Positions 2-2,809 are shown, counted from the first letter of the stretch. The stretch is DNA of 5,384 bases from a virus (IMGVR_UViG_2606217105_000010); one strand, 5' to 3'. Notes: generated from the letters alone by a model not told the origin. Numbers and translations: made by a program.

Positions 2-2809
2 CTCTGGTCGTCATACACCGAAATCATCGATGTGAAACAGTGCTACCCGAACACGGCACTGGTCGGCGTACAGGTGGATTCGGAGCAGTTCGGCAGCCAG
101 CAGGTGAGCCGTAATTATCATCTTCGCGGGCGCATTCTGCAGGTGCCGTCGAACTATAACCCGCAGACGCGACAATACAGCGGTATCTGGGACGGAACGT
201 TTAAGCCGGCATACAGCAACAACCCGGCCTGGTGTCTGTGGGATATGCTGACCCACCCGCGCTACGGCATGGGGAAACGTCTTGGTGCGGCGGATGTGGA
301 TAAATGGGCGCTGTATGTCATCGGCCAGAATTGCGACCAGTCGGTGCCGGATGGCTTTGGTGGCACGGAGCCGCGTATCACCTGTAATGCGTACCTGACC
401 ACGCAGCGCAAGGCGTGGGATGTGCTCAGTGATTTCTGCTCGGCGATGCGCTGTATGCCGGTATGGAACGGGCAGACGCTGACGTTCGTGCAGGACCGGC
501 CATCGGATAAGGTGTGGACCTATAACCGCAGTAATGTGGTGATGCCGGATGATGGCGCGCCGTTCCGCTACAGCTTCAGCGCCCTGAAGGACCGTCATAA
601 TGCCGTTGAGGTGAACTGGATTGACCCGGATAACGGCTGGGAGACGGCGACAGAGCTTGTGGAGGATACGCAGGCCATTGTCCGTTACGGTCGTAACGTC
701 ACGAAGATGGATGCCTTTGGCTGTACCAGCCGGGGGCAGGCACACCGCGCCGGGCTGTGGCTGATTAAAACGGAGCTGCTGGAGACGCAGACCGTGGACT
801 TCAGCGTGGGCGCAGAAGGGCTTCGCCATGTACCGGGCGATGTCATTGAAATCTGTGATGATGACTATGCGGGGATCAGCATTGGTGGGCGTGTGCTGGC
901 GGTGAACAGCCAGACCCGGACGCTGACGCTCGACCGTGAAATCACGCTGCCATCCTCCGGCACCACGCTGATAAGCCTGGTTGACGGGCAGGGGAATCCG
1001 GTCAGCGTGGAGGTCCAGTCCGTCACCGACGGCGTGAAGGTGAATGTGAGCCGTATTCCTGACGGCGTTGCCGGATACAGCGTGTGGGGGCTGAAGCTGC
1101 CGACGCTGCACCAGCGCCTGTTCCGCTGTGTGAGTATCCGTGAGAACGACGACGGCACGTATGCCATCACTGCCGTGCAGCATGTACCGGAGAAAGAAGC
1201 CATCGTGGATAACGGGGCGCACTTTGACGGTGACCAGAGCGGCACGGTGAATGGTGTAACGCCGCCAGCAGTGCAGCACCTGACCGCAGAAGTCACCGCA
1301 GACAGCGGGGAATATCAGGTGCTGGCGCGCTGGGACACGCCGAAGGTGGTGAAGGGGGTGAGCTTTATGCTTCGCCTGACCGTGGCAGCGGATGACGGCA
1401 GTGAGCGGCTGGTCAGCACGGCCCGGACGACGGAAACCACATACCGCTTCACGCAACTGGTGCAGGGAAACTACAGGCTGACAGTCCGGGCGGCAAATGC
1501 CTGGGGGCAGCAGGGCGATCCGGCGTCGGTATCGTTCCGGATTGCCGCACCGGCAGCGCCGTCGAGGATTGAGCTGACGCCGGGCTATTTTCAGATAACC
1601 GCAACGCCGCATCTTGCCGTTTATGATCCGACGGTACAGTTTGAGTTCTGGTTCTCGGAAAAGCGGATTACCGATATCAGGCAGGTTGAAACCAACGCGC
1701 GTTATCTTGGTACGGCGCTGTACTGGATAGCCGCCAGTATCAATATCAGGCCGGGCCATGATTATTATTTTTATGTTCGCAGTGTGAACACCGTTGGCAA
1801 ATCGGCATTTGTGGAGGCCGTCGGTCGGGCGAGCGATGATGCGGAAGGCTACCTGGATTTTTTCAAAGGCAAGATAACCGAATCCCATCTCGGCAAGGAG
1901 CTGCTGGAAAAAGTCGAGCTGACGGAGAATAACGCCAGCAAACTGGAGGAGTTTTCGAAAGAGTGGAAGGACGCCAGTGATAAATGGAATGCCATGTGGG
2001 GCATCAAAATTGAGCAGACCAAAGACGGCAAACATTATGTCGCGGGTATTGGCCTCAGCATGGAGGACACGGAGGAAGGCAAACTGAGCCAGTTTCTGGT
2101 TGCCGCTAACCGTATTGCGTTTATTGATCCGTCTAATGGCAACACAAGACCAATGTTTGTTGGTCAGGGCGATCAGATATTCATGAACGACGTGTTCCTG
2201 AAACGCCTGACGGCCCCCACCATTACCAGCGGTGGCAGTCCTCCGGTATTTTCCCTGACATCAGACGGAAAGCTGACCGCTAAAAATGCGGATATCAGTG
2301 GCAGTGTGAATGCGAACTCAGGGACGCTCAACAACGTCACGATTAATGAGAACTGTCAGATTAAGGGGAAACTGTCAGCCAACCAGATTGAAGGTGATAT
2401 TGTCAAAACGGTCAGCAAGTCTTTCCCCCGCACGAGCACTTATGCCAGCGGCACCATCACGGTAAGAATCAGTGATGATCAGAAGTTTGACCGGCAGGTC
2501 ATGATACCGCCAGTGTTATTCCGCGGTGGTAAGCATGAGAATTTCAACAGTAATAACCAACAGTCATACTGGTATTCAACCTGCCGGTTAAGAGTGACCC
2601 GCAATGGTCAGGAGATTTTTAATCAGTCCACGACGGATGCTCAGGGCGTATTTTCCTCAGTTATAGATATGCCTGCCGGACAGGGGACGCTGACACTGAC
2701 ATTCACCGTATCTTCATCAGGAGCGAATAACTGGACACCAACAACCAGTATCAGCGATCTGCTGGTTGTGGTGATGAAAAAATCCACAGCAGGTATCAGT
2801 ATCAGCTGA
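2..2809 (+). CDS. J: Tail tip host-specificity protein J (central tail fibre), 5'-partial; about 935 codons present
   Basis: Reading frame is open from window position 2 (no stop before the first in-frame GTG at 32) and ends at TGA 2807-2809. Translation is recognisably lambda J-like along most of its length (e.g. [88 protein letters not shown], ending ...[17 protein letters not shown]). The gene order J-lom-stf matches lambda. Start coordinate is the window edge, not the true start. Confidence 0.92.
1258..1840 (+). other. Two tandem fibronectin type III-like (Ig-like beta-sandwich) domains within J
   Basis: Segments [98 protein letters not shown] and [25 protein letters not shown]...[20 protein letters not shown] show the FN3 hallmarks (conserved Trp, Tyr-x-hydrophobic-x-Val-x-Ala core, about 90 aa each). 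Boundaries are approximate and domain assignment is by eye. Confidence 0.5.

Follow-up and report, generated by a model that had tools for sequence, protein, structure and literature searches.

Gene content and organization

The stretch of DNA analysed here (the window, 5,384 nt) carries J (3' part), lom and stf (5' part), in this order. It represents the final portion, J-lom-stf, of the tail operon of a lambda-like E. coli prophage. Among finished genomes, that of E. coli 40EC comes closest, being 97.5% identical and colinear over all 5,384 nt. In 40EC, the block lies where the tail operon of a lambdoid prophage ends, beside prfC, and the genes follow each other in the series tape measure, M, L, K, I, J, lom, stf, tfa. 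The window is identical with the entire contig JNPI01000043.1 of a draft assembly (GCA_000703645.1), and both of its ends fall inside genes, in J and stf. The assembly probably broke at these points because J and stf recur among lambdoid prophages. The features of the window are collected in Table 1.

Table 1. Features of the 5,384-nt window, with positions counted from its first nucleotide
Feature	Position (nt)	Strand	Remarks
J, tip attachment / host specificity protein	2..2809	+	last 935 codons and stop (2807-2809)
lambda-type body of J: hub domains, FNIII domains, helical shaft, central straight fibre	2..2319	+	~95% DNA and 95.3% protein identity to lambda J
apparent secondary mosaic patch within the central fibre	2102..2190	+	DNA identity to lambda dips to 0.73-0.75
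crossover interval, 38 nt	2282..2319	+	encodes 13 residues, roughly lambda J residues 958-970
receptor-binding module of J, A8/phi330 type, probable OmpC binder	2321..2806	+	fragment residues 774-935; Pfam Ig_GpJ_C at 812-935, E = 4e-36
loop TSTY (phi330 T918-Y921)	2432..2443	+	named in PMC12502783; A8 has TNSY
10-residue hairpin (phi330 E953-S962), predicted to enter the OmpC barrel	2537..2566	+	exact numbering map; AlphaFold3 model in PMC12502783
hairpin ANNWTP (phi330 A1015-P1020), predicted on the OmpC rim	2723..2740	+	exact numbering map; AlphaFold3 model in PMC12502783
terminator-like hairpin followed by T run, directly 3' of J	2827..2846	+	consensus scan only; terminator annotated at the same place in 434 and 21
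lom, Ail/Lom outer-membrane beta-barrel, 199 aa	2876..3475	+	Pfam Ail_Lom, E = 3e-119
stf, side tail fibre, N-terminal 615 codons, cut by contig end	3540..5384	+	Pfam phage_tail_N at residues 1-134, then long Ala/Ser-rich stretch; 2H10 annotation

The 5' end of J was lost at the contig end, and about 197 codons are absent. The remaining part contains, from N- to C-terminus, the Pfam domains Phage-tail_3, Ig_J, Ig_J_second, Phage_Tail_Tip and Ig_GpJ_C, all five far above cut-off. Against the NCBIfam model lambda_TipJ, of which positions 198-1163 are aligned, the truncated J scores 1893. This is below the curated cut-off of 1950, which fits the 197 residues cut away at the contig end.

Four other long open frames overlap the annotated genes, at 11-2035 (minus strand, 674 aa), 3763-4377 (minus strand, 204 aa), 3937-4944 (plus strand, 335 aa) and 4037-4966 (minus strand, 309 aa). 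They are antisense or out of frame to J and stf, and look like by-products of GC-rich, Ala/Ser-rich coding rather than genes. A segment of about 350 nt within the Ala/Ser-rich part of stf (~4411-4770) lacks an aligned counterpart in lambda stf, and is present in phage 2H10. This looks like a length difference in a low-complexity shaft; a repeat search of stf detected no tandem repeats.

A sharp boundary between the body and the tip of J

A sliding window comparison with lambda J gave DNA identities of 0.88-1.00 between nt 2 and about nt 2340, with the exception of the dip listed in Table 1, and of 0.30-0.62 from there to the stop codon. At the protein level, the upstream 773 residues are 95.3% identical to lambda, as opposed to 44.3% for the last 162. 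The preliminary description of this DNA, which had presented the body of J as nearly lambda and the C-terminus as only loosely similar, was thus right in this respect. It was also close in placing the break near a 12-residue motif at about nt 2325-2358; the motif is found at nt 2321-2356. Its proposal of a swapped receptor module holds in so far as a different allele starts at a sharp boundary, but the module comprises the last 162 residues and not about 250.

The position of the crossover can be narrowed down by comparison with the J genes of Shiga toxin (Stx) phages. In a four-way comparison, the window tracks lambda (~95%) from nt 1 to ~2280, where the Stx phages phi330 and YYZ-2008 are only 55-90% identical to it, and then tracks the Stx phages (93-100%) from ~2282 to ~3884. 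Past nt 2281, the identity values for phi330 and YYZ-2008 go up from 60-70% to 99-100%, whereas those for lambda drop from ~95% to ~55% at nt 2320-2344. Since YYZ-2008 shows its last mismatch at 2281, and mismatches to lambda start at 2320 (sparse at first, dense from 2344), the crossover must lie within nt 2282-2319. These 38 nt are the same in the window, lambda and YYZ-2008. A maximum chi-square analysis places the breakpoint at nt 2331 (chi2 = 145).

The divergence point corresponds to the end of the Pfam Phage_Tail_Tip domain, at fragment residue 775, and hence to the transition from the fibre to the receptor-binding domain. The J proteins of lambda, 434 and the window all diverge from one another at this place. 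The natural crossover also coincides with the point chosen for the engineered A8 fusion, at lambda residue 964. An invariant nucleotide linker was not found at the junction, since no invariant run of at least 12 nt extends across nine J genes. Instead, the junction region contains pairwise identity islands only, for example between lambda and YYZ-2008 (0.97 over 2297-2326).

The age of the two tips can be judged from codon usage at residues that are conserved between the window and lambda. The codon is kept at 88.6% of such residues in the upstream part, but only at 39.2% in the tip. It follows from the low codon sharing that the two tips are old alleles that were exchanged by recombination, and not products of recent point mutation. 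On these comparisons, J in the window is a natural mosaic, consisting of a lambda-type body and a different receptor-binding allele joined at a sharp recombination boundary.

Divergence of the tip in place, by fast adaptive point mutation, would leave the phage with a LamB or LamB/OmpF-type range, like evolved lambda. A few point mutations in the tip region are known to change receptor use of lambda J (cited in PMC11101478), and the fold and several motifs are common to lambda and the window. Nevertheless, this scenario deserves hardly any credence: synonymous sites are saturated (39% codon identity at conserved residues against 89% upstream), the loops contain indels, and the change is abrupt. 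Moreover, the tip is 99-100% identical to alleles that sit on very different J bodies, and identical or near-identical tips depend on OmpC, in the case of A8 in a ΔlamB background.

A trivial origin of the mosaic also has to be considered. In a strain with several prophages, the assembler could have joined a lambda-type body to the tip of another prophage across a shared repeat. The window is a whole contig of a draft assembly, E. coli genomes hold a median of 3 places similar to it, and the junction is located in a stretch conserved between J types. However, the same colinear arrangement is present in phages 2H10 (95.7% identity), Turner, Chlobot and PhiR30_1, and in finished chromosomes such as that of E. 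coli 40EC (97.5%). The two sides of the junction match 2H10 with identities of 0.97 and 0.98. An assembly artefact is therefore very improbable.

The preliminary description had taken a drop in GC content as a mark of the swap. Its hand counts were accurate (41.7% for nt 2521-2580 and 63.3% for nt 1261-1320 by exact count), but the conclusion drawn from them does not hold. GC content steps from ~0.65 to ~0.50 at nt 1560-1620, inside the 95% lambda-like part and ~780 nt upstream of the boundary, which rules it out as a swap marker. The GC content of the receptor-binding domain (47.3%) is just slightly below that of the preceding stretch (51.2%); the lambda receptor-binding domain has 54.6%. The supposed re-convergence with lambda at the C-terminus is not seen either, since DNA identity stays at 0.47-0.57 up to the stop codon. 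The residues concerned belong to motifs (MPAGxG and KK..GIS) that are common to all alleles of the J tip domain, 434 included.

Smaller pieces of mosaicism are apparent as well. The patch at 2102-2190, where identity to lambda dips, looks like a second, smaller mosaic piece. Directly downstream of it, a 12-residue stretch at nt 2195-2260 matches phage 434 exactly. At nt 1351-1530, phi330 is 94-98% identical to the window, whereas its close relative YYZ-2008 is only ~60% identical. The contrast indicates that the J genes of Stx phages, too, contain small lambda-type patches.

Relatives of the J tip

The 480 nt that encode the tip are 99.2-99.6% identical to the J 3' ends of dozens of long-tailed Stx1a/Stx2a phages (YYZ-2008, CP-1639, phi330), 98.5% identical to those of phages 2H10 and Turner, and 98.3% identical to that of Chlobot. 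The last 162 residues are 100% identical in phi330 and YYZ-2008, and 98.8% identical in 2H10 and in A8, an engineered J protein discussed below. More distant versions are found in phage 21 (81.5%), BP-4795 (77.8%), WGPS2 (63%), 434 (45%) and lambda (44%).

Phage 21 lacks lom and has stf directly after J. It is absent from the BASEL paper, which therefore provides no receptor for it, and no receptor data for the PhiR phages were found in the paper on Chi-hotspot lambdoid phages.

The Stx phages phi330 (vB_EcoS_phi330, Stx2a, Pankowvirus), YYZ-2008, CP-1639 and many other long-tailed Stx1a/Stx2a phages resemble the window not only in the tip (100% protein, 99.2-99.6% DNA identity), but also in the adjoining lom and the start of stf, which are 93-100% identical. 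They differ upstream of nt 2282, where J is only 55-90% identical, and they are members of other genera; many of these phages carry stx. The 434 J and the WGPS2-type tip, which is the allele of the chimera 1A2 (PMC11338833), are homologous to the window tip, use OmpC (in the case of 1A2, the EDL933 variant) and leave lambda at the same boundary. Nevertheless, they are distinct alleles, with 45% (434) and 63% (WGPS2 type) identity to the tip of the window.

The tip matches Pfam Ig_GpJ_C and the solved structure of lambda gpJ over its full length. Similarity to lambda gpJ (PDB 8xcj/8xck/8iyk) extends to the Ig-like fold family, to the location at the end of a trimeric fibre, and presumably to the trigger mechanism. 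However, the window tip shares only 44% protein and ~55% DNA identity with the lambda receptor-binding domain, and there are indels in the loop regions. The low protein identity and the loop indels rule out that it is the lambda LamB-binding tip with loops L1-L4; the receptor of lambda is LamB and not OmpC.

In lambdoid phages with FhuA-type tail tips, cor is located downstream of J, and N15 and phi80 also have gp22/gp23-like genes. In the window, J is followed by lom and stf, and not by cor. A BLASTP comparison of the tip with the J proteins of phi80, HK022, N15 and HK97 gave nothing better than E = 1.2, so that the J C-termini of these phages are not detectably homologous to the tip. A FhuA-type tail tip (as in phi80, HK022 and N15) can therefore be ruled out.

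The adjoining lom gene

Divergence from lambda does not stop at the end of J (nt 2809). It runs on through the intergenic region and lom (codons 1-180), and ends at about nt 3415. The Lom protein of the window is 96-98% identical to Lom of 434, BP-4795, WGPS2 and phi330, and only 44% identical to the 206-residue Lom of lambda. Because the same Lom allele (96-98%) is found beside quite different tips in 434, BP-4795 and WGPS2, the J tip and lom cannot be a single co-transferred module. It follows that lom is not linked to the tip allele, and that lambda is unusual at both loci.

Terminator-like hairpins with T runs are present on both sides of lom (2827-2846 and 3502-3523). Such flanking hairpins are as expected of lom as a separately acquired "moron" gene. 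A simple scan for a sigma-70-like promoter between the two hairpins did not identify a candidate.

Evidence for OmpC as the probable receptor

Functional data for a phage with the tip of the window are available for phi330. On 54 outer-membrane mutants of the Keio collection, plaquing of phi330 fails only on the ΔompC strain, and is restored by chromosomal Plac-ompC (PMC12502783). The phage depends on the OmpC of K-12 BW25113 (PMC12502783). In the AlphaFold3 model of the phi330-OmpC complex, the hairpin E953-S962 is located in the barrel, and residues A1015-P1020 are on the rim (PMC12502783). The OmpC dependence was ascribed to J by structure prediction and not by a J swap (PMC12502783). Both hairpins predicted to contact OmpC are present in the window, and both are identical in A8.

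A8 consists of lambda gpJ, fused at residue 964 to a natural E. coli prophage J C-terminus (Brödel et al., Nature 2024, PMC11338833). The A8 DNA in the supplement of this paper is the allele of the window, except that the codons for TNS and TST differ. At the protein level, 160 of the 162 residues are identical, with the differences confined to the TSTY loop (TNSY in A8). A8 and the J of the window thus share the tip allele, its native DNA sequence, a lambda-type body and a junction in the same conserved stretch. They differ in that A8 was engineered and the J of the window is natural, in that the body of the latter is 95% and not 100% identical to lambda, and in that it has TST where A8 has TNS.

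Combined with a P2-type side fibre, A8 delivered DNA into ΔlamB ΔompC cells that carried ompC on a plasmid (PMC11338833). It was active on the K-12 and EDL933 OmpC variants, and on most of 23 variants, but not on every one (PMC11338833). A8 and the 1A2 chimera differ in the OmpC variants that they accept, and 21 of the 23 variants could be used by A8, 1A2 or both (PMC11338833). The A8 experiments place specificity in the C-terminal segment itself, independent of Stf.

A solved structure exists for a chain that is 98.8% identical to the tip. PDB entries 9wca and 9wcb contain "A8 gpJ 713", which matches the last 216 residues of the window (E = 9e-135). Entry 9wcb contains three such chains together with three chains of OmpC, and, judging from the chains present, is presumably the A8 tip-OmpC complex. 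Together with this entry, the A8 work fills in for the missing J swap in phi330, albeit for a tip with two differences in the TSTY loop.

Studies of identical or near-identical domains elsewhere have thus shown that the A8/phi330-type tip binds OmpC, and that it is enough to retarget lambda particles from LamB to OmpC. The preliminary description had named no receptor, but its suggestion of one different from that of lambda agrees with the OmpC dependence of the tips of phi330 and A8. By sequence identity, OmpC is the probable receptor of the phage in the window. As A8 is inactive on some OmpC variants, the host range of this phage should depend on OmpC alleles.

Despite the A8/phi330 allele, the productive receptor could still be a different or broader one, such as another porin or a subset of OmpC variants, as a result of the two-residue difference or of a Stf tip that governs adsorption. 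The differences to A8 are all in the TSTY loop, the 434 counterpart of which is predicted to touch OmpC, A8 and 1A2 accept different OmpC variants, and the C-terminal, receptor-recognising part of Stf falls outside the contig. On the other hand, phi330 has the exact TSTY version and needs the OmpC of K-12 BW25113, and its loop (T918-Y921) is significantly shorter than the 434 counterpart with the predicted OmpC contact (PMC12502783). Overall, an altered receptor appears improbable.

A related idea is slightly easier to entertain, although it is still unlikely: having TSTY in place of TNSY may adjust the range of natural OmpC variants that the tip accepts. In that case, the many near-identical tips in E. 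coli prophages would form a graded series of OmpC-allele specificities, rather than represent one specificity.

Origin and significance of the J mosaic

In our view, the data are best explained by a lambda-like prophage in which a lambda-type J body has been joined by recombination to an OmpC-binding tip of the A8/phi330 type. We consider this interpretation correct with a probability of roughly 0.9. The colinear mosaic is present over all 5,384 nt in an isolated phage, 2H10. The exchange would have occurred by homologous recombination in the short stretch that the different J types have in common, where the fibre passes into the receptor-binding domain. A join at this place would let tips be swapped without upsetting the trimeric fibre.

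As seen in the lambda-LamB structures, the domain bases move apart upon receptor binding, the central fibre twists, and the tail tip opens to release the DNA (PMC11101478). By analogy, OmpC binding in the phage of the window would be passed up the fibre, so that the tail tip opens and DNA ejection starts. The J trimer would dock on the OmpC trimer via the bottom loops of the Ig-like domain, with the 10-residue hairpin inserted into the barrel and ANNWTP placed on the rim.

The tip allele is common. Among 20,395 records that make up 5,426 complete E. coli genomes, about 1,500 contain it with at least 95% identity, and 707 of these with at least 99%. The lambda LamB-type allele is found in 98 of the 5,426 complete genomes, always with at least 99% identity. 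All five lambda-allele matches listed come from laboratory strains, among them DE3 lysogens and a K-12 derivative. The description of the tip as swapped relative to lambda is therefore true, yet lambda is an unusual reference. The comparison corrects a reference bias: the LamB-binding tip and the lom allele of lambda are rare in complete E. coli genomes, whereas the form in the window is common.

The tip of the window belongs to an allele that is widespread and has been well characterised, and its point of exchange is a modular one known before. Nothing in the J mosaic of the window raises a new question. The mosaic also shows that natural J proteins exist with the same join as the engineered lambda-A8 chimera, which was employed to deliver DNA in the gut. 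The assignment of OmpC as the probable receptor helps to predict the host range of the prophage, and the routes by which hosts may become resistant.
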